Positions 1 to 17,201 of a stretch of 17,683 nucleotides of DNA are shown here, in pieces. A program made the position numbers and the translations under genes. A model generated the notes under the pieces. The model had not been told where the DNA came from, did no database searches, and saw nothing but the letters and a program-made list of their open reading frames with translations. The DNA is from a virus. Taxonomy: Duplodnaviria; Heunggongvirae; Uroviricota; Caudoviricetes. Numbering within the stretch: the stretch's first letter is position 1; every line of letters starts with the position of its first letter. The stretch is from IMG/VR virus record IMGVR_UViG_2526164647_000009; one strand, given 5' to 3'.

Positions 1-403
1 TTTCGGCGGGCGTGGGCCAGGCACCCGGCTTCCTTCACCCGGCCCGTTTCGTACAGTACGTTATAACCTGCATAGGCATCAGCCTGCAGTACGCCCTGAT
101 ACTTTGCCAGGTGGAGCTGCGGATGTTCTCCTTTGCGATCTGCCGAATACGCGAACCAGACGGCTGCCGGCAGGGATGAACCCGCATTACGATCATCCCT
201 GACGTATACCCACAGACGACCCGTTTTCGTCTTTCCGTTCCCCGGGGCCAGTACTTTCACCGGAGTGTCATCTGCGTGCACCTTTCCTGCCTCCAGAACA
301 TAGTCATTCAGCGCTATATACAGAGGACGGAGTTTGTCTGCCATTTCTGATACCCTGCGCACCATGGTATTACGGCTCAGCTCCACGCCCTGTCGCGCGT
401 ATA
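1..403 (-). pseudogene. IS66-family transposase (TnpC-like) internal fragment, cut by the window edge on one side and by the IS3-family insertion at 404/405 on the other
   Basis: My own minus-strand translation of 403->3 reads ...[134 protein letters not shown] with no stop. The motifs ([27 protein letters not shown]) are typical of the IS66 TnpC central region. The frame runs straight into the IS terminus at 404, so the gene is interrupted. It is not in the ORF track because it has no stop inside the window. Confidence 0.7.
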
Positions 404-447
404 TTGAGGTGTACTGGCAATAGCGGACACTACCATTTGTTCTTTTT

Positions 448-1266
448 TTAAGCAGCCATCTGATGATATTTTTCCCTGAAGGCTGCCGGGGAGATATTCC
501 CCAGACGAGAGTGACGACGCTGACGATTGTAGAAAATCTCAATGTATTCCCGTATTACTGAGATGGCTTCATCCCGGTTATTAAAACGATAGTGGCTCAG
601 GCTCTCATTTTTCAGCGTTCCCCAGAAGCTTTCCATCGGAGCGTTGTCGTAACAGTTACCTTTACGCGACATTGATGTTTTCAGACCAGACTGCTCCTGT
701 ATGACCCGGTAATCGTATGCGCAGTACTGTGAACCTCGATCAGAGTGGTGGATTAGCCCGGCAGGTGGGCGCTGGCTCCTGAGCGCCATAAACAGGGCTT
801 TACCTGTCAGCTCTTTTGTCATGCGCTCTCCCATGGCGTAGCCGACAATTTCGCACGTATAAACATCTTTGATGCCAGCGAGGTACAACCATCCCTCCTG
901 TGTGGCAACATACGTCAGGTCCGCCACCCAGACCTGATTTGGTGCTGTAGGAGCGAACGTCTGGTTCAGCAGATTTGGCGCAACTGGCAGATTGTGGTTC
1001 GGGTTCGTAGTCGCTCTGAACTTGCGTTTCTGCTTACAGCGTAGCCTCAGCTCCTTACGAAGACGTGCCAGTCGGTCACGACCAACGATGATGCCATTCT
1101 CTGCCAGCTCCGTCTGGAGCCGCCGGGTTCCATATGTTTCGCGAGTGCGGATATGTGCCACCTTAATCTCCAGTTTTAGCCGCTCATCACTTTGTTTTCT
1201 GTCTGAGGGTTCATGCTGTACCCAGTTGTAATAACCGCTCCTGGATACACCAAATACCTGACACAT
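448..1266 (-). CDS. IS3-family transposase OrfB (DDE catalytic domain), IS600-like, copy A
   Basis: The 272-aa ORF has the IS3-family integrase signature ([11 protein letters not shown]...EGWLYLA...HHSDRGSQY...[15 protein letters not shown]). It is in the -1 frame relative to the upstream orfA fragment. It differs from copy B at one residue (Leu32 versus Pro32, base 1172 versus 3113). Confidence 0.9.
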
Positions 1267-1301
1267 CGCTTCAATGGGAAATTGTTGTCGCCATTGTTCG
1301 A

Positions 1302-1482
1302 TTAACGCGTATTTTTCAGCGACTCCTGTGCAAAATACGCTGTTGATTTTTTTAATATATCGCGCTCAAGGCGAGCTTCATTTAACGCCTTACGCAGTTG
1401 CAGAATTTCAGATTCCAGTTCAGCCACCGTGCGGGAACCAGGAGTACCGAGCCCTTTTCTGGCGGCGGTAACCCATTGTCCT
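1302..1482 (-). pseudogene. IS3-family OrfA C-terminal fragment (leucine-zipper part only), IS600-like copy A; the N-terminal helix-turn-helix part is absent
   Basis: The translation ...GQWVTAARKGLGTPGSRTVAELESEILQLRKALNEARLERDILKKSTAYFAQESLKNTR shows a heptad Leu pattern and the YFA motif of IS3-family OrfA C-termini. An A7 run (1347-1353 on the minus strand) sits at the orfA/orfB overlap. The homology ends at about 1482, where the palindrome junction lies. Confidence 0.8.
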
Positions 1483-1487
1483 GAAGG

Positions 1488-1490
1488 CAC
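1488..1490. repeat. CAC, left copy of the 3-bp target-site duplication flanking IS629
   Basis: CAC lies immediately outside the IS629 terminus at 1491 and again at 2797-2799. Removing IS629 plus one CAC restores an open orfA reading frame (cct gaa ggc act tta gga caa tgg = PEGTLGQW). Confidence 0.8.
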
Positions 1491-1532
1491 TGAACCGCCC
1501 CGGGTTTCCTGGAGAGTGTTTTATCTGTGAAC

Positions 1533-2415
<883 letters not shown>

Positions 2416-2419
<4 letters not shown>

Positions 2420-2742
2420 TTTTTCCAGAGGCGGTCGAACTCCGCCTTCGCAAAATAAGCGGAAGCCTGGCGAAGGATATCGTTACTGCGGCGCAGTTCA
2501 CGATTTTCACGCTCCGGCTCTTTCAGACGCTGACGTTCAGCGGTGGTGAGCCCTCCATCACCGCCCCCGGTATCCCGCTCATGCTGGCGACCCCAGACAC
2601 GCAGAGTCTCCGGCGTACAGCCAATCTTTGGAGCAATGGAACAAATTGTCGCCCATTGTGAGTCATATTCGCCCTGACTTTCCAGAACCATACGGACTGC
2701 CCGTTGACGGACTTCGGGGGAAAAACGAGTATTTTTAGTCAT
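2416..2742 (-). CDS. IS629 transposase OrfA (helix-turn-helix and leucine zipper), 108 aa
   Basis: [108 protein letters not shown] matches my memory of IS629 OrfA. Its stop overlaps the orfB ATG (ATGA). It lies 40 bp inside the right-hand inverted repeat. Confidence 0.9.
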
Positions 2743-2796
2743 CCTGTTTACCTCTTTCTCAGGAAGTTTAGTCTCCAGGATTCCCGGGGCGGTTCA

Positions 2797-2799
2797 CAC
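2797..2799. repeat. CAC, right copy of the 3-bp target-site duplication flanking IS629
   Basis: Same trinucleotide as 1488-1490, directly abutting the other IS629 terminus. Confidence 0.8.
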
Positions 2800-2800
2800 T

Positions 2801-2983
2801 TTAGGACAATGGGTTACCGCCGCCAGAAAAGGGCTCGGTACTCCTGGTTCCCGCACGGTGGCTGAACTGGAATCTGAAATTCTGCAACTGCGTAAGGCGT
2901 TAAATGAAGCTCGCCTTGAGCGAGATATATTAAAAAAAGCAACAGCGTATTTTGCACAGGAGTCGCTGAAAAATACGCGTTAA
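2801..2983 (+). pseudogene. IS3-family OrfA C-terminal fragment, IS600-like copy B; the N-terminal part is absent from this window
   Basis: The frame reads LGQWVTAARKGLGTPGSRTVAELESEILQLRKALNEARLERDILKKATAYFAQESLKNTR and stops at 2981-2983. There is no upstream start, helix-turn-helix region or left inverted repeat. Confidence 0.8.
2932..2939 (+). promoter_or_regulatory. A7G (A AAA AAG type) -1 ribosomal frameshift motif at the orfA/orfB overlap of the IS600-like element
   Basis: The A7 run followed by G sits at the point where orfB is open in the -1 frame relative to orfA, which is the standard IS3-family OrfAB fusion mechanism. The mirror motif in copy A (1346-1353, minus strand) has T instead of G after the A7 run. 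Confidence 0.7.
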
Positions 2984-3018
2984 TCGAACAATGGCGACAA
3001 CAATTTCCCATTGAAGCG

Positions 3019-3837
3019 ATGTGTCAGGTATTTGGTGTATCCAGGAGCGGTTATTACAACTGGGTACAGCATGAACCCTCAGACAGAAAACAAAGTGATG
3101 AGCGGCTAAAACCGGAGATTAAGGTGGCACATATCCGCACTCGCGAAACATATGGAACCCGGCGGCTCCAGACGGAGCTGGCAGAGAATGGCATCATCGT
3201 TGGTCGTGACCGACTGGCACGTCTTCGTAAGGAGCTGAGGCTACGCTGTAAGCAGAAACGCAAGTTCAGAGCGACTACGAACCCGAACCACAATCTGCCA
3301 GTTGCGCCAAATCTGCTGAACCAGACGTTCGCTCCTACAGCACCAAATCAGGTCTGGGTGGCGGACCTGACGTATGTTGCCACACAGGAGGGATGGTTGT
3401 ACCTCGCTGGCATCAAAGATGTTTATACGTGTGAAATTGTCGGCTACGCCATGGGAGAGCGCATGACAAAAGAGCTGACAGGTAAAGCCCTGTTTATGGC
3501 GCTCAGGAGCCAGCGCCCACCTGCCGGGCTAATCCACCACTCTGATCGAGGTTCACAGTACTGCGCATACGATTACCGGGTCATACAGGAGCAGTCTGGT
3601 CTGAAAACATCAATGTCGCGTAAAGGTAACTGTTACGACAACGCTCCGATGGAAAGCTTCTGGGGAACGCTGAAAAATGAGAGCCTGAGCCACTATCGTT
3701 TTAATAACCGGGATGAAGCCATCTCAGTAATACGGGAATACATTGAGATTTTCTACAATCGTCAGCGTCGTCACTCTCGTCTGGGGAATATCTCCCCGGC
3801 AGCCTTCAGGGAAAAATATCATCAGATGGCTGCTTAA
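3019..3837 (+). CDS. IS3-family transposase OrfB (DDE domain), IS600-like, copy B
   Basis: The 272-aa ORF is identical to the copy A OrfB except for Pro32. Confidence 0.9.
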   Translation: MCQVFGVSRSGYYNWVQHEPSDRKQSDERLKPEIKVAHIRTRETYGTRRLQTELAENGIIVGRDRLARLRKELRLRCKQKRKFRATTNPNHNLPVAPNLLNQTFAPTAPNQVWVADLTYVATQEGWLYLAGIKDVYTCEIVGYAMGERMTKELTGKALFMALRSQRPPAGLIHHSDRGSQYCAYDYRVIQEQSGLKTSMSRKGNCYDNAPMESFWGTLKNESLSHYRFNNRDEAISVIREYIEIFYNRQRRHSRLGNISPAAFREKYHQMAA

Positions 3838-3882
3838 AAAAAGAACAAATGGTAGTGTCCGCTATTGCCAGTACACCTCAAA

Positions 3883-4188
3883 CTACTCATTGCCAGATGG
3901 GAACTGACCGCAGAACAGGCTGTCGCACAGCAGTTAAAAAATCAGGTGTCAAAAGGAAATCTTATCGATACCGGATTTTGTATTTTTGCCCTTAGTAAGC
4001 TGGCGATGGCTTTATCCAGTACGCTTGACTCCATTCCTTTGTCCATGCAACGACAGTTCCCGGATTTAACGCCGCGTCATATTGATCATCTGAAAATCCT
4101 TATTGCTAAGGGAGCGAATCAGTGCGCGCGTGCGGGGGATAAATTACCGGATTTACTCGATGAATATATCAGAACAACAACTGAGTAA
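3883..4188 (+). pseudogene. nu1: Terminase small subunit (lambda Nu1-like), C-terminal roughly 100 codons only; the 5' part of the gene is replaced by the IS600-like element
   Basis: The translation ...ARWELTAEQAVAQQLKNQVSKGNLIDTGFCIFALSKLAMALSSTLDSIPLSMQRQFPDLTPRHIDHLKILIAKGANQCARAGDKLPDLLDEYIRTTTE aligns with the lambda Nu1 C-terminal region (RHRLTRAQADAQELKN...ETAFCTFVLSRIA...LPLSVQRRFPEL...LSEYIEQSG, from memory). The homology starts exactly at the IS end. The 3' end overlaps the start of A as in lambda. Confidence 0.85.
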
Positions 4189-6088: not shown

Positions 6089-6275
6089 ACTGCAGGCGCT
6101 GCGTCAGGCGCGCCTTGATTTATTAACCGGTAAACGGGTTGTGTCGGTACAGAAAGACGGTCGCAGGATCGAATATACGGCAGCGTCCCTGAATGAGCTT
6201 AACCGTGCGATCAACGATGCGGAGTCGGTTCTGGGTACGACCCGACGCCGCCGACCGCTGGGAGTGAGGTTATGA
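6072..6275 (+). CDS. W: Head-tail joining / head completion protein (lambda gpW-like)
   Basis: The 67-aa product ...LTGKRVVSVQKDGRRIEYTAASLNEL...RRRRP resembles lambda W (...[20 protein letters not shown]...). There is a GGAGGA ribosome-binding site at 6062-6067, and the position between A and B is conserved. Confidence 0.9.
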   Translation: MVTVAELQALRQARLDLLTGKRVVSVQKDGRRIEYTAASLNELNRAINDAESVLGTTRRRRPLGVRL

Positions 6276-7865
6276 AACGAACGCCTGTCCTGATTGATGT
6301 GAACGGCGTTCCGCTTCGTGAGAGTCTCAGCTACAACGGAGGCGGCGCAGGATTTGGCGGGCAAATGGCAGAGTGGTTACCACCGGCGCAGAGTGCCGAT
6401 GCGGCCCTGTTGCCTGCATTGCGTCTGGGGAATGCCCGGGCAGATGATCTGGTGCGCAATAACGGTATCGCGGCTAATGCGGTGGCCCTGCATAAGGATC
6501 ATATCGTCGGGCACATGTTTCTTATCAGCTACCGTCTGAACTGGCGTTGGCTGGGGATGCGGGAGACCACGGCAAAAAGTTTTGTCGGGGAGGTGGAAGC
6601 AGCCTGGTCGGAATACGCAGAAGGAATGTTTGGCGAGATCGACGTGGAAGGGAAACGCACGTTTACGGAATTTATCCGTGAAGGGGTGGGCGTGCATGCC
6701 TTTAACGGCGAAATCTTTGTGCAGCCGGTCTGGGATACGGAAACCACGCAGTTATTCCGTACGCGTTTTAAAGCCGTGAGTCCGAAACGGGTGGACACGC
6801 CAGGACACGGTATGGGGAACCACTTTCTGCGGGCCGGGGTTGAGGTCGATCGGTATGGGCGGGCGATTGCGTACCATATCTGTGAGGATGATTTTCCGTT
6901 CTCTGGTGCCGGACGCTGGGAGCGGATCCCGCGTGAGCTTCCCACCGGGCGTCCGGCCATGCTGCATATTTTTGAGCCGGTGGAGGACGGGCAGACCCGT
7001 GGGGCCAATCAGTTTTACAGCGTAATGGAGCGGATGAAGATGCTGGACTCCCTGCAGGCCACGCAGCTTCAGTCGGCCATTGTGAAGGCGATGTATGCAG
7101 CCACAATCGAAAGTGAACTTGATACCGAAAAGGCATTTGAATATATCGCGGGGGCACCGCAAGGTCAGCAGGATAATCCGCTTATTAATATTCTGGAGAA
7201 GTTCACCCGCTGGTATGACACGAATAACGTGACGCTGGGCGGTGTTAAAATTCCGCACCTTTTTTCCTGGCGATGCGCTGAACCTGCAGACAGCGCAGGA
7301 TTCAGACAATGGATTTTCGGCGCTTGAACAGGCGCTGCTGCGGTATATTGCAGCCGGTCTTGGCGTTTCCTACGAACAGTTGTCCCGTGATTACTCGAAG
7401 GTCAGTTACTCAAGTGCCCGTGCCTCCGCCAATGAGTCGTGGCGCTATTTTATGGGGCGGCGAAAATTTATTGCGGCCCGGCTGGCCACGCAGATGTTTT
7501 CCTGCTGGCTGGAAGAGGCGCTTCTTCGGGGGATTATTCGTCCGCCACGGGCGCGTTTTGATTTTTACCAGGCGCGTTCAGCCTGGTCACGGGCAGAGTG
7601 GATTGGCTCCGGAAGAATGGCCATTGACGGGCTCAAGGAGGTCCAGGAATCGGTGATGCGCATTGAGGCCGGACTGAGCACGTATGAGAAAGAACTGGCA
7701 CTGATGGGCGAAGATTATCAGGACATTTTCCGCCAGCAGGTCAGGGAATCCGCAGAGCGCGAAAAAGCCGGACTCTCACGTCCGGTGTGGATAGCCCAGG
7801 CGTATCAGCAGCAGATAGCGGAGAGTCGCAGGCCGGAAGAGGAGACAACATCACGTGAGACGTAA
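6272..7865 (+). pseudogene. B: Portal protein (lambda gpB-like) with a +1 frameshift at the T6 run 7260-7265
   Basis: ORF 6272-7327 carries the N-terminal 330 or so residues (...GGGAGFGGQ...ARADDLVRNNG...IFEPVEDGQTRGANQFYSVME...SAIVKAMYAATIESELDT...GGVKIPHLF). ORF 7242-7865 carries the remainder (FPGDALNLQTAQDSDNGFS...LLRYIAAGLGVSYEQLSR...WIGSGRMAIDGLKEVQE...). Both align with lambda B. The total span is 3n+1. Confidence 0.9.
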
Positions 7866-12228: not shown

Positions 12229-12626
12229 ACCGACACACACAAATCCGTCAGAGCGTGCTGGCACGCCTTCGGGAACAGTGTGGAGACAGCGCCACGTTTT
12301 TTGACGGGCTTCCGGCATTTATTGATGCGCAGGAACTGCCTGCCGTGGCGGTGTGGCTGAGTGATGCTCAGTACACCGGAAAAATGACGGATGAAGATGA
12401 CTGGCAGGCTGTTCTGCATATTGCCGTCTTCATCCGGGCACAGGCACCGGATTCAGAGCTGGATATGTGGATGGAGAGCACCATTTTCCCGGCCCTGAAT
12501 GATGTACCGGCACTTTCCGGACTCATCGACACCCTGAACCCACTCGGTTTTAACTATCAACGTGATAATGAGATGGCTACCTGGGCGATGGCGGAAATCA
12601 CGTACCAGATCACGTACACGAATTAA
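12225..12626 (+). CDS. U: Tail terminator protein U (lambda gpU-like)
   Basis: ...ATFFDGLPAFIDAQELPAVAVWLSDAQYTG...WQAVLHIAVFIRAQAPDSELDMWMES...PALSGLI...YQITY resembles lambda U (...ATFFDGRPAVFDEADFPAVAVYLTGAEYTG...PDSELDAWMES...ITYEM). The ATGA overlap with the Z stop is present. Confidence 0.9.
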   Translation: MNRHTQIRQSVLARLREQCGDSATFFDGLPAFIDAQELPAVAVWLSDAQYTGKMTDEDDWQAVLHIAVFIRAQAPDSELDMWMESTIFPALNDVPALSGLIDTLNPLGFNYQRDNEMATWAMAEITYQITYTN

Positions 12627-13435: not shown

Positions 13436-13822
13436 ATGTTTCTGAAACAGGATACGTTTAATTATGAAAAACAGTCCGTGGTGCTCAGTGAGCTGTCCGG
13501 GCTGCAGAGAATTGAATATCTGACGTTTGTTCAGCAGCGAACGGCAAAGTTTGATGCACAGGAGGGAGAACTGCCGGAGGCTGAACGACAGATTGCTTTT
13601 CTGCGTATGGGAATGGATATCAATGCCTGGCTGGTTTCCCGCTCACTGTGGAATGCTGAGCAGTCTCAGGATGTTGAGACGCTTTGCGCATCCATTATGA
13701 CAACATGGTCGTATGATGCGCTGGGCGCGGGGGCGGAGAGGGTTCTGTCGCTGAGCGGTATGGGGACCATTGAGAATGCCGGGGATGATGATCATGAGGC
13801 GCTGACGCCGGAAAAGTCCTGA
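13436..13822 (+). CDS. G: Tail assembly chaperone G (lambda gpG-like)
   Basis: MFLKQDTFNYEKQSVVLSELSGLQRIEYL... resembles lambda G (MFLKTESFEHNGVTVTLSELSALQRIEHL...). The acidic C-terminus and the position before the overlapping T frame are conserved. Confidence 0.9.
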   Translation: MFLKQDTFNYEKQSVVLSELSGLQRIEYLTFVQQRTAKFDAQEGELPEAERQIAFLRMGMDINAWLVSRSLWNAEQSQDVETLCASIMTTWSYDALGAGAERVLSLSGMGTIENAGDDDHEALTPEKS

Positions 13823-14160
13823 CGCGGGAAATGCAGTTTGTCATGCGGCTTGCCCGGGAGTTCCGGCGGGCAGACTGGCGGCGGATGCTGTCGGATATGT
13901 CGGCCACTGAGCTTGGTGAGTGGGGCGATTATTTCCGGATGCAGAGCTTCAGTGATGTGTGGATGGATGCGCAGTTTGCCTCGCTGAAGGCATTGATCGT
14001 GAGAATGGTGTCCGGCAGCAGCGATGCTGCGGTGGCTGATTTCAGCCTTTTACCGGAAGAGAACGGGATACCGGAGCGAACGGACGAAGAACTGATGCAT
14101 CTTGGGGAAGGTATTTCCGGAGGTGTGCGTTATGGACCAGATAGCCAACCTGGTCATTGA
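13798..14160 (+). CDS. T: T portion of the tail assembly chaperone G-T fusion (lambda gpT-like), in the -1 frame relative to G; expected to be expressed only as a G-T fusion by ribosomal frameshifting
   Basis: The -1 frame is open from 13798, directly after its own stop at 13795-13797, and overlaps the last 22 nt of G. It reads ...GKVLTREMQFVMRLAREFRRADWRRM.... The G/T arrangement matches lambda. The only slip candidate in the overlap is GGAAAAG at 13810-13816. Confidence 0.8.
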   Translation, partial: GADAGKVLTREMQFVMRLAREFRRADWRRMLSDMSATELGEWGDYFRMQSFSDVWMDAQFASLKALIVRMVSGSSDAAVADFSLLPEENGIPERTDEELMHLGEGISGGVRYGPDSQPGH

Positions 14161-16872
14161 TTTGGGGATTGATGCGGCAGAGTTTAAAAATGAAATTCCC
14201 CGTATCAAAAACCTTCTGAATGGTGCAGCCAGCGATGCAGAACGGTCTTCTGCCCGTATGCAGCGTTTTATGGAGCGTCAGACTCAGGCGGCCCGGCAGA
14301 CAATGCAGGCGGCTTCTTCGGCTGCAACAGCAGCATCAGCCCATGCGCAGACGGTGGAGAAGAATGCACGGGCTCATGAACGCATGGCCCGTGAGGTGGA
14401 ACAAACCCGTCTGCGCGTGGATGCCCTGAATCAGAAAATGCGCGAGGAACAGGCGCAGGCCAGGGCGGCTCAGCTGGGGGTAAGCAGTGCTGCAGAAGTG
14501 TATATCCGCAAAATGGAGCGGGCAGGAAAAGCCACACATTCGCTGGGGCTGAAAAGTGCGGCAGCCCGGCGGGAGCTGGGGGTGTTAATCAGTCAGATGG
14601 CGCGCGGCAATTTTGGTGCGCTGAGGGGATCCGGGATAACGCTGGCTAACCGTGCCGGATGGACTGGCGCACTGATGTCGCCGAAAGGCATGATGACTGG
14701 CGGCGTTATTGGCGGACTTGTCGCGGCGGTCCTGGGTCTGGGTAAAGCCTGGCATGACGGCCGGAAGGAGGGCGAGAAATTTAACCGTCAGCTGGCGCTG
14801 ACGGGACATTATGCCGGTGTCACTGTCGGGCAGTTGTGGAAACTCAGCCGGGCCATATCCGGGAATGGTATCACGCAACATGCGGCAGCCGGTGCGCTGG
14901 CACAGGTGGTGGGCAGTGGGGCATTTCATGGAAACGATATTGGTATGGTGGCGAAAGCTGCCGCACAGATGGAGCGATCGGTTGGCCAGTCGGTCAGCGA
15001 TACCATAAATCAGTTTAAGCGGCTGAAGGATGATCCTGTAAATGCCGCGAAGGCGCTGGACAATGCGCTGCATTTTTTGAATGCCACTCAGCTTGAGCAG
15101 ATACGCGTCCTTGGGGAGCAAGGGGCGGTCCAGTGATGCGGCCCGGATCGCCATGTCTGCGCTGGCAGAGGAAACCGGTAAACGCACATCTGATATTGAT
15201 AATAATCTCAATGCGCTGGGTAGTACGCTGCAAACCTTGTCTGACTGGTGGAAGCAGTTCTGGGATGCGGCCATGAATATTGGTCGTGAAGACTCGCTGG
15301 ATGCGCAGATCGATGCGTTACAGGAAAAAATTCAGCGCGCGAAAAAATATCCGTGGACAAACGCCTCCACACAGGTGGAGTACGATCAGCAGCGTCTTAA
15401 CGATCTTCAGGAGAAAAAACGCCGGAAGGATTTGCAGGATGCAAAAGCGCAGGCAGAACGGAATTACCAGGAGCAACAGAAACGCCGGAATGCTGAAAAT
15501 GCCGCGCTGAACCGGATGAATGAAACGGAAGCTGCACGACATCAGCGGGAAATTGCGCGTATTAATGCCATGCAGTACGCCGACCAGGCTGTCAGGGATG
15601 CGGCGATACAGCGTGAAAATGAACGTTACGAAAAAGCCATTAAGAAAAATACACGGGCAACCCGTAATGATGAGGCCACCCGGTTATTGCTGCAGTACAG
15701 TCAGCAGCAGGCACAGGTGGAAGGGCAGATTGCTGCTGCCAGACAGTCAGCAGGCATTGCCACTGAAAGGATGACTGAAGCGCATAAACAGCTTCTGGCC
15801 CTGCAGCAGCGCATCAGCGACCTGGACGGGAAAAAGCTGACGGCAGATGAAAAGAGTGTGCTGGCCCGTAAGAATGAGCTGATTCAGGCGCTGACGCTGC
15901 TGGATGTGAAACAGCAGGAGCTGCAGAAACAGACAGCGCTTAACGACCTGAGAAAAGAAAACGGTTCAGCTGACCAGCCAGCTGGCAGACAAAGAACGTG
16001 CACTGCGTGAGCAGCACAATCTGGATATTGCCACTGCAGGTATGGGGGATAAGCAGCGGCAGCGCTACCAGGCACCGTTGCGCATCCGGCAGGAATACCG
16101 GCAACAGTTGCAACAGCTTGAGAATGACAGTCGCCAGAAAGGCACTTACGGGACGGAGGACTACCGGAGGGCTGAGGAGGTGCTGAAGGGGAGCCTGAAG
16201 CGACAACTGAATGAAAACAAACGCTACTGGCAGGAACTGGAAGTGGCGCAGGGCGACTGGAAAAACGGTGCCATGCGGGCGTTTCAGAATTTTACGGCGG
16301 ATGCGGATAATGCGGCGGGAACGGCAGAACAGATGTTTACAGTGGCATTCAGCAGTGCCGGTAATGCACTGGCGACATTCTGTACCACCGGTAAGCTGAA
16401 TTTTAAATCCTTCACCTCTTCCCTGTTGTCAGATATGGCCAGAATTATGGCACAGATGGCCATGATGCAGGCGGTAAAGGGCGTCGGTTCTTTATTCGGC
16501 TTCACGACTAATGCTGATGGCGGTGTTTACCAGTCTGCTGATTTGAGTCGCTACAGTGGCACGGTGGTTAACCGTCCGACGTTTTTTGCTTTTGCAAAAG
16601 GCGCGGGTGTGATGGGGGAAGCGGGACCTGAAGCCATTCTGCCACTGCGTCGCGGTGCTGATGGTAAGCTGGGGGTTGTGGCGGATACTGGTGGTTCAGG
16701 CATGGTGATGTTTGCCCCGCAGTACAACATTGAGATCAATAACGACGGCACGAACGGGCAGATAGGTCCGGCTGCCCTGAAGGTGGTTTATGACCTCGGG
16801 AAAAAAGCGGCCGCGGACTTTATGCAACAGCAGGCCCGTGATGGTGGCCGGTTAAGTGGAGCATACCGGTAA
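14132..16872 (+). pseudogene. H: Tail tape measure protein (lambda gpH-like) broken by two +1 frameshifts, within 15081-15134 and within 15952-16010
   Basis: Three consecutive ORFs in frames 2, 0 and 1 together align with lambda H from N-terminus to C-terminus (MDQIANLVIDLGIDAAEF... to ...INNDGTNGQIGPAALKVVYDLGKKAAADFMQQQARDGG, compared with lambda ...VINNDGTNGQIGPAALKAVYDMARKGARDEIQTQMRDGG). The total span is 2741 nt (3n+2). A GGAGG ribosome-binding site lies 8 nt before the ATG at 14132. Confidence 0.9.
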
Positions 16873-17201
16873 TGGAGACGTTTCACTGGAAAGTGCGCCC
16901 GGATATGAATGTGGTATCAGAGCCGAAAGTGGTGACAGTGAAGCTGGGCGATGGTTATGAACAGCGTCGTGCGGCGGGACTGAATAACCAGTTGTCGACT
17001 TACAGCGTGACGATACGTGTTCGTAAAGGTGAACACCCATCTTTAAAAGCCTTTCTGGAACGGCACGGTGGCGTCCGCGCATTTCAGTGGACGCCACCTT
17101 ATGACTGGAAACTGATCAGGGTGGTTTGTCGTAAATGGTCGGCAAGCGTGGGGGCGTTATGGGTGACTGTAACGGCCGATTTTGAACAGGTGGTGAACTG
17201 A
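16872..17201 (+). CDS. M: Minor tail protein M (lambda gpM-like)
   Basis: METFHWKVRPDMNVVSEPKVVTVKLGDGYEQRRAAGLN...TYSVTI...FLERHGGVRAFQWTPPYDWKLIRVVCRKWSA...ADFEQVVN resembles lambda M (MKTFRWKVKPGMDVASVPSVRKVRFGDGYSQRAPAGLN...FLEEHGGWKSFLWTPPYEW...AEFEQVVN). A TAATG overlap joins it to the H stop. Confidence 0.95.
   Translation: METFHWKVRPDMNVVSEPKVVTVKLGDGYEQRRAAGLNNQLSTYSVTIRVRKGEHPSLKAFLERHGGVRAFQWTPPYDWKLIRVVCRKWSASVGALWVTVTADFEQVVN

Follow-up and report, generated by a model that had tools for sequence, protein, structure and literature searches.

The lambda H-type tape-measure gene of a Shigella flexneri K-218 prophage carries, at 15953–15961 on the plus strand, a second +1 frameshift site, where the window reads A4-G-A4 and its relatives read A8, and the aligned extra base is G15957. 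With moderate confidence, the feature is regarded as a genuine single-base (+1) shift of frame in H, carried by a lambda-like prophage that is decaying. The window, meaning the whole stretch of 17,683 nt that was analyzed, is the complete contig AFGV01000031.1 of the draft assembly GCA_000213675.2 of S. flexneri K-218 (multi-contig WGS), an assembly listed under this strain name in a published strain table (PMC6397287).

The gene occupies 14132–16872 on the plus strand, and its 2741 nt (3n + 2) form a pseudogene in three frames that is collinear with intact H genes of 1013 aa. Fragment 1 (14132–15136, plus strand, 334 aa) matches Pfam TMP_2 (E = 1e-46) and ends at a stop created by the first +1 insertion; fragment 2 (15153–16010, plus strand, 285 aa as called, with the ORF open from 15081) matches TMP_4 (E = 5e-17) and is out of frame over its final 17 codons, ENGSADQPAGRQRTCTA; fragment 3 (15952–16872, plus strand, frame 1) matches Tape_meas_lam_C (E = 2e-25) and is called as 276 aa from the ATG at 16042 to the stop at 16870–16872. 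The region 14100–16900 has as its counterpart in other genomes one gene of 3042 nt (1013 aa), annotated as "phage tail tape measure protein", with identities of 99.4–99.6% in EIEC-like E. coli and 99.8% in S. flexneri SFBU1023, and the single-ORF tape-measure genes collinear with the three fragments encode 1013–1021 aa. Base-by-base comparison with the intact orthologues gives four differences, namely an extra A at 15120/15121, G15957, a 303-nt deletion, and a few substitutions; the single-base insertions number exactly two. Without these two extra bases, the gene becomes a single ORF of 912 aa with no internal stop, and the repaired protein is 99.5% identical over 807 residues to the intact 1013-aa H of SFBU1023 and 85% identical to the H of mEp460, while its residues 176–912 align with residues 113–853 of lambda H (E = 9e-46). 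The preliminary description had read the 3n + 2 span as two single-base insertions and the three ORFs as one gene collinear with lambda H, and both readings are confirmed by the alignments. Its length of about 912 residues holds for the repaired ORF but not for the ancestral gene, which encodes 1013 aa; the shorter length is due to a private 303-nt deletion that had been missed. The domain order, the position between G/T and M/L, and the collinearity with lambda H place the gene in the lambda gpH family; since it runs through three frames instead of one uninterrupted ORF, it is, as recorded, a pseudogene of that family and not a functional member.

At the second site, the sequence of 15940–16010 is ttaacgacct gagaaaagaa aacggttcag ... 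gcactgcgtg a, with AAAA runs at 15953–15956 and 15958–15961 and G15957 between them. Frame 1 is closed upstream by the TGA at 15949–15951 and is open from 15952, reading EKKTVQLTSQLADKERALREQHNLD..., while frame 0 (ORF 15081–16010) ends in ...TALNDLRKENGSADQPAGRQRTCTA with the stop TGA at 16008–16010, and the tape-measure homology changes frame at 15953–15961. With the domains of the three fragments in order and the fragments collinear with single genes, this switch is no accident of overlapping ORFs. The end of the frame 0 stop, the opening of frame 1, and the two AAAA runs had all been placed correctly in the preliminary description, and the +1 frameshift that it took to be the second of two single-base insertions is recovered by alignment to intact orthologues. 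All seven relatives that were aligned read GAG AAAAAAAA CGG at the site, and A4-G-A4 occurs in the window alone; in the relatives' frame, the codons are AGA AAA AAA ACG (R K K T), against AGA AAA GAA AAC GG... in the window. The relatives have A8 in place of the A4-G-A4 of the window, whose two A4 runs are halves of the ancestral A8, so that the extra base by alignment is G15957 and not an A in one of the A4 runs, as had earlier been proposed. The removal of an A from the first A4 run does restore the wild-type protein as well (AAG = Lys), but G is found at this place in no relative, and for that removal to be the true repair, a prior synonymous A-to-G change would be needed, which no relative shows.

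The absence of the extra base from relatives extends over several collections. Among the fetched loci with the same flanks, comprising 36 close loci besides the window, the run is A8 in 31, A7 in three, A5 in one, and A9 in one, and A4GA4 is the form of the window only; in the comparison with orthologues that had been recommended earlier, every relative examined lacks the G, and most read A8. Patterns of the form GACCTGAGAAAA N{0,1} AAAACGGTTCAG, scanned in GTDB representatives, JGI metagenomes, and IMG/VR, yielded no second A4-N-A4, and the matches, which lie on 23 IMG/VR prophage contigs, at 4 GTDB places, and on 1 metagenome contig, are all of the 24-nt A8 form. Similarly, a 116-nt segment around the site has 26 matches in complete E. 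coli genomes, spread over 11 genomes; in 9 of these, the best match differs from the window solely by this one gap, and none of the complete E. coli genomes matching the segment has the extra base.

The other lesions in the gene are likewise private to the window. The first +1 insertion is an extra A at 15120–15121 on the plus strand, where relatives read GCA-GGGG and the window reads GCAAGGGG; it occurs in 0 of 70 IMG/VR matches. The in-frame deletion of 303 nt (101 codons) has its junction at 14459–14466 on the plus strand, where the 8-nt direct repeat GCCAGGGC survives as a single copy; the 303 nt are retained in all relatives, and a scan of IMG/VR for the deletion junction gave zero matches. 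Three private substitutions were found, at 14665 (0/28 relatives), 15311 (0/32), and 16076 (0/35); the first two are synonymous, and the third changes Q to P. Two technical origins were considered and rejected. Tandem-repeat collapse during assembly does not explain the 303-nt gap, for the intact gene contains no long direct repeat and only the 8-nt microhomology; a chimeric consensus, with the substitutions coming from the paralogous copy of this gene in SFBU1023, is contradicted by the private substitutions, which match no other fetched copy.

The host element of the H pseudogene is a decayed, defective lambda-like prophage of S. flexneri K-218. According to Pfam matches on the called genes, the neighbors of H are, in order, Phage_TAC_2, Phage_tail_T, [H], Phage_min_tail, and Phage_tail_L; upstream synteny is given by the tail-assembly chaperone genes G (13436–13822, plus strand, Phage_TAC_2) and T (13831–14160, plus strand, Phage_tail_T), and downstream synteny by gene M (16872–17201, plus strand, 109 aa, Phage_min_tail). 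The G/T chaperone overlap at 13808–13833 reads CCGGAAAAGTCCTGA and contains GGAAAAG, whereas the slippery heptamer of lambda is GGGAAAG. The portal gene of the lambda family is split into ORFs at 6272–7327 and 7242–7865, both of which match Phage_portal_2, and the split corresponds to T5 becoming T6 at 7255–7260 relative to the intact orthologue in E. coli FDAARGOS_943. The early and lysis region of the prophage is absent, and in place of the early region stands a nest of insertion sequences in the left 3.9 kb (1–3886), which meets the terminase region directly at about 3880. This nest consists of an ISSfl3 (IS66-like) fragment at 1–398, two inverted partial IS600 arms of 1088 nt at 399–1486 and 2799–3886, and between the arms, an IS3-family element of 1312 nt whose transposase orfB is apparently split (1533–2201 and 2063–2419). 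The palindromic IS600 arrangement could be genuine or could be a repeat mis-join in the draft. In addition, 22 substitutions in 240 nt are clustered at 12341–12578, at the U/V gene boundary, relative to the otherwise near-identical SFBU1023 prophage, and the cluster resembles a small patch of recombination.

A8 is the longest homopolymer of the intact H gene, and it is a place where indels recur. Its length differs in 5 of 36 close relatives, which is the behavior of a slippage hot spot, with sequencing error as the alternative for those assemblies. The run makes up 0.26% of the gene, yet of the roughly 31 indel events of one base (or 3 nt) among close relatives, 5 fall within it. The chance that a random insertion hits it is about 0.3% (about 9 slots in 3042 nt), and this low likelihood implies that the run itself is causally involved. 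With the shifted tail as a protein query, an E. coli assembly (GCA_901482675.2, contig CABEFB020000002.1; L012/P0001) was detected that bears an A9 allele, its product ending in ...RKKNGSADQPAGRQRTCTA, one residue different from the tail of the window; the other products matching the shifted tail correspond to A7 and A6. In that assembly, the tape-measure gene is in five called pieces with four 1-nt indels, including the A9, and the L and K genes are apparently fused; it is probably noisy, and because its H gene is so broken up, the A9 length may itself be noise. Several of the assemblies with A5, A7, or A9 at the run also bear other 1-nt indels in the gene, scattered over homopolymers, and these accompanying indels look like technical noise. 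For curators, the A8 run is best treated with suspicion as a recurrent indel site.

The most likely origin of the lesion, and the simplest biological route, would be replication slippage at the run, turning A8 into A9, and then an A-to-G transition in an already dead gene. In a one-step alternative, a G may have been inserted directly, with the same sequence outcome. Against the two-step origin, the substitution must fall within the 9-nt run, and at the observed rate of private substitutions, the chance of this is about 1%. In either case, the shifted frame runs to a stop 17 codons on (16008–16010), and the C-terminal third with Tape_meas_lam_C continues in the next frame. As the second lesion lies downstream of the earlier +1 frameshift at 15120/15121, it is best read as a sign that decay went on under relaxed selection. 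We infer both that the lesion is present in the DNA, rather than in the assembly alone, and the order of events.

Several findings argue for a real mutation. A G within an A run is unlike a homopolymer-length miscall. The three private substitutions and the microhomology deletion are not typical read errors, and the gene copy therefore has a history of its own, long enough for indels to accumulate. Elsewhere, too, the prophage is defective, with the portal gene split and the IS nest in place of the early region, and finished genomes hold real lesions in the same gene, such as a 46-nt deletion in E. coli O121. Against a real mutation, every lesion is confined to a single draft WGS contig; when the three H fragment proteins were looked up in an index of 153 billion genes, each was found on contig AFGV01000031.1 alone. 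Moreover, the three 1-nt lesions of the contig are all insertions, and two of them lie in homopolymers (T5 to T6, and A8).

These last points lend weight to a base-calling or consensus error in the draft, an explanation that is less probable than a genuine mutation and still a serious competitor. On this account, the true K-218 gene is in frame at the site, reading A8 or A3-G-A4 with a synonymous AAG, and the extra base arose at a long homopolymer when bases were called or the consensus was built; the other H lesion would be either real or an error too. The contig does belong to a draft assembly, and 2011-era Shigella drafts of this kind were presumably pyrosequenced. The lesion is unique to the K-218 contig among all the collections searched, the site is the longest homopolymer of H, the other two 1-nt differences of the contig are also +1 insertions, and the A5, A7, and A9 lengths of other assemblies come together with scattered homopolymer indels. 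However, homopolymer miscalls alter the length of a run and do not insert a different base in its middle, and an in-frame truth that contains the G would need a private substitution in the run and, in addition, an overcalled short run (A3 or A4). The three private substitutions and the clean microhomology deletion also point to a genuinely diverged, unconstrained copy and not to a noisy consensus.

It is very improbable that the A run is a site of programmed slippage, ribosomal or transcriptional, or a contingency locus, controlling the full-length tape-measure protein, and that the window would represent one state of such a switch. What suggests this is that in the relatives the reading frame divides the run as A AAA AAA, which fits the X XXY YYZ rule for a slippery heptamer, and that its length differs among relatives (A5, A7, A8, A9). 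Equally improbable is the corresponding view of the A8 run as a reversible on/off switch or a source of truncated isoforms, with the G of the window locking one state. The run of the window is broken by the G (AAAAGAAAA), which destroys its slipperiness, and a single frame runs through the site both in intact relatives and in viable phages such as mEp460. In a clade with 87% identity, the site is AAG AAA AAA ACA, and its length is constant in 41/41 loci; the shifted frames end in short junk tails, the length variants come from assemblies with several other indels, and AAA is the usual Lys codon. As for programmed frameshifting, the change of frame is not conserved in relatives, the slippery sequence is interrupted, and the sequence of the window is present in none of them. 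Finally, that the three ORFs are separate genuine genes, as the three products of 334, 285, and 276 aa in the gene calls of the record would have it, is hardly credible and was rejected, because single 1013-aa genes match them over their whole length (99.5–99.8% identity), with two 1-nt insertions and one in-frame deletion as the differences, and because their Pfam domains follow the tape-measure order.

For the genuine frameshift, the consequences are modest. Translation from the H start already ends at 15136, at the first lesion, and the second lesion thus adds no further functional loss; the earlier statement that truncation here abolishes tail assembly is accordingly weak for this lesion, and the prophage is defective anyway, given the portal frameshift and the IS nest. 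In lambda, tail length is proportional to the length of the tape-measure protein gpH, and in-frame deletions shorten the tails. By analogy, the 101-codon deletion alone would be expected to give a shorter tail, while the frameshifts would remove the C-terminal domain of H altogether. The feature is of an already known, ordinary kind: either the tape-measure gene of a cryptic Shigella prophage has become a pseudogene through frameshifts, or, possibly, the draft assembly is in error. It matters for annotation alone, in that the ORFs at 14132–16872 should be recorded under a single entry, a tape-measure pseudogene in a defective lambdoid prophage, and not as three genes; it fits the familiar decay of Shigella prophages through IS nests, frameshifts, and microhomology deletions, and raises no new question.

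Compared with known systems, the window has the same gene order, G, T, H, M, L, as that around lambda gpH, mEp460 gp13, and the H of phage cdtI, and lambda gpH and its lambdoid orthologues share TMP_2, TMP_4, and Tape_meas_lam_C with the H of the window. The repaired protein is collinear with lambda H at 25% identity. In contrast to the lambdoid orthologues, the H of the window has two +1 frameshifts, and it is 101 codons shorter than the nearest intact orthologues. These include the intact H genes of S. flexneri SFBU1023 (CP182556.1) and of EIEC-like E. coli such as RMDEC364 (WP_490187552.1), which show 99.6–99.8% nucleotide identity over the aligned gene; the neighboring genes are nearly identical as well, and the 667 nt upstream match SFBU1023 at 100% and RMDEC364 at 99.4%. 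In these genes, A8 and the 303 nt are present, the A inserted at 15120/15121 is absent, and a single ORF encodes 1013 aa. Tape-measure pseudogenes of this family, frameshifted or partly deleted through small indels between or within short repeats, also occur in cryptic prophages of Shigella and E. coli. One of them, in E. coli O121 201805972 (PWR57_RS13040), is recorded as "frameshifted" in RefSeq; its lesion is a 46-nt deletion between CAGTCAGCAG repeats, compared with two 1-nt insertions and a 303-nt in-frame deletion in the window. The same 46-nt deletion is common to E. coli O121 and a second fetched locus (L027), and four IMG/VR contigs from four genomes (L020, L021, L026, L035) have in common a 43-nt deletion and a mosaic segment in the tape-measure gene. 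The decay of this tape-measure gene in prophages is recurrent.
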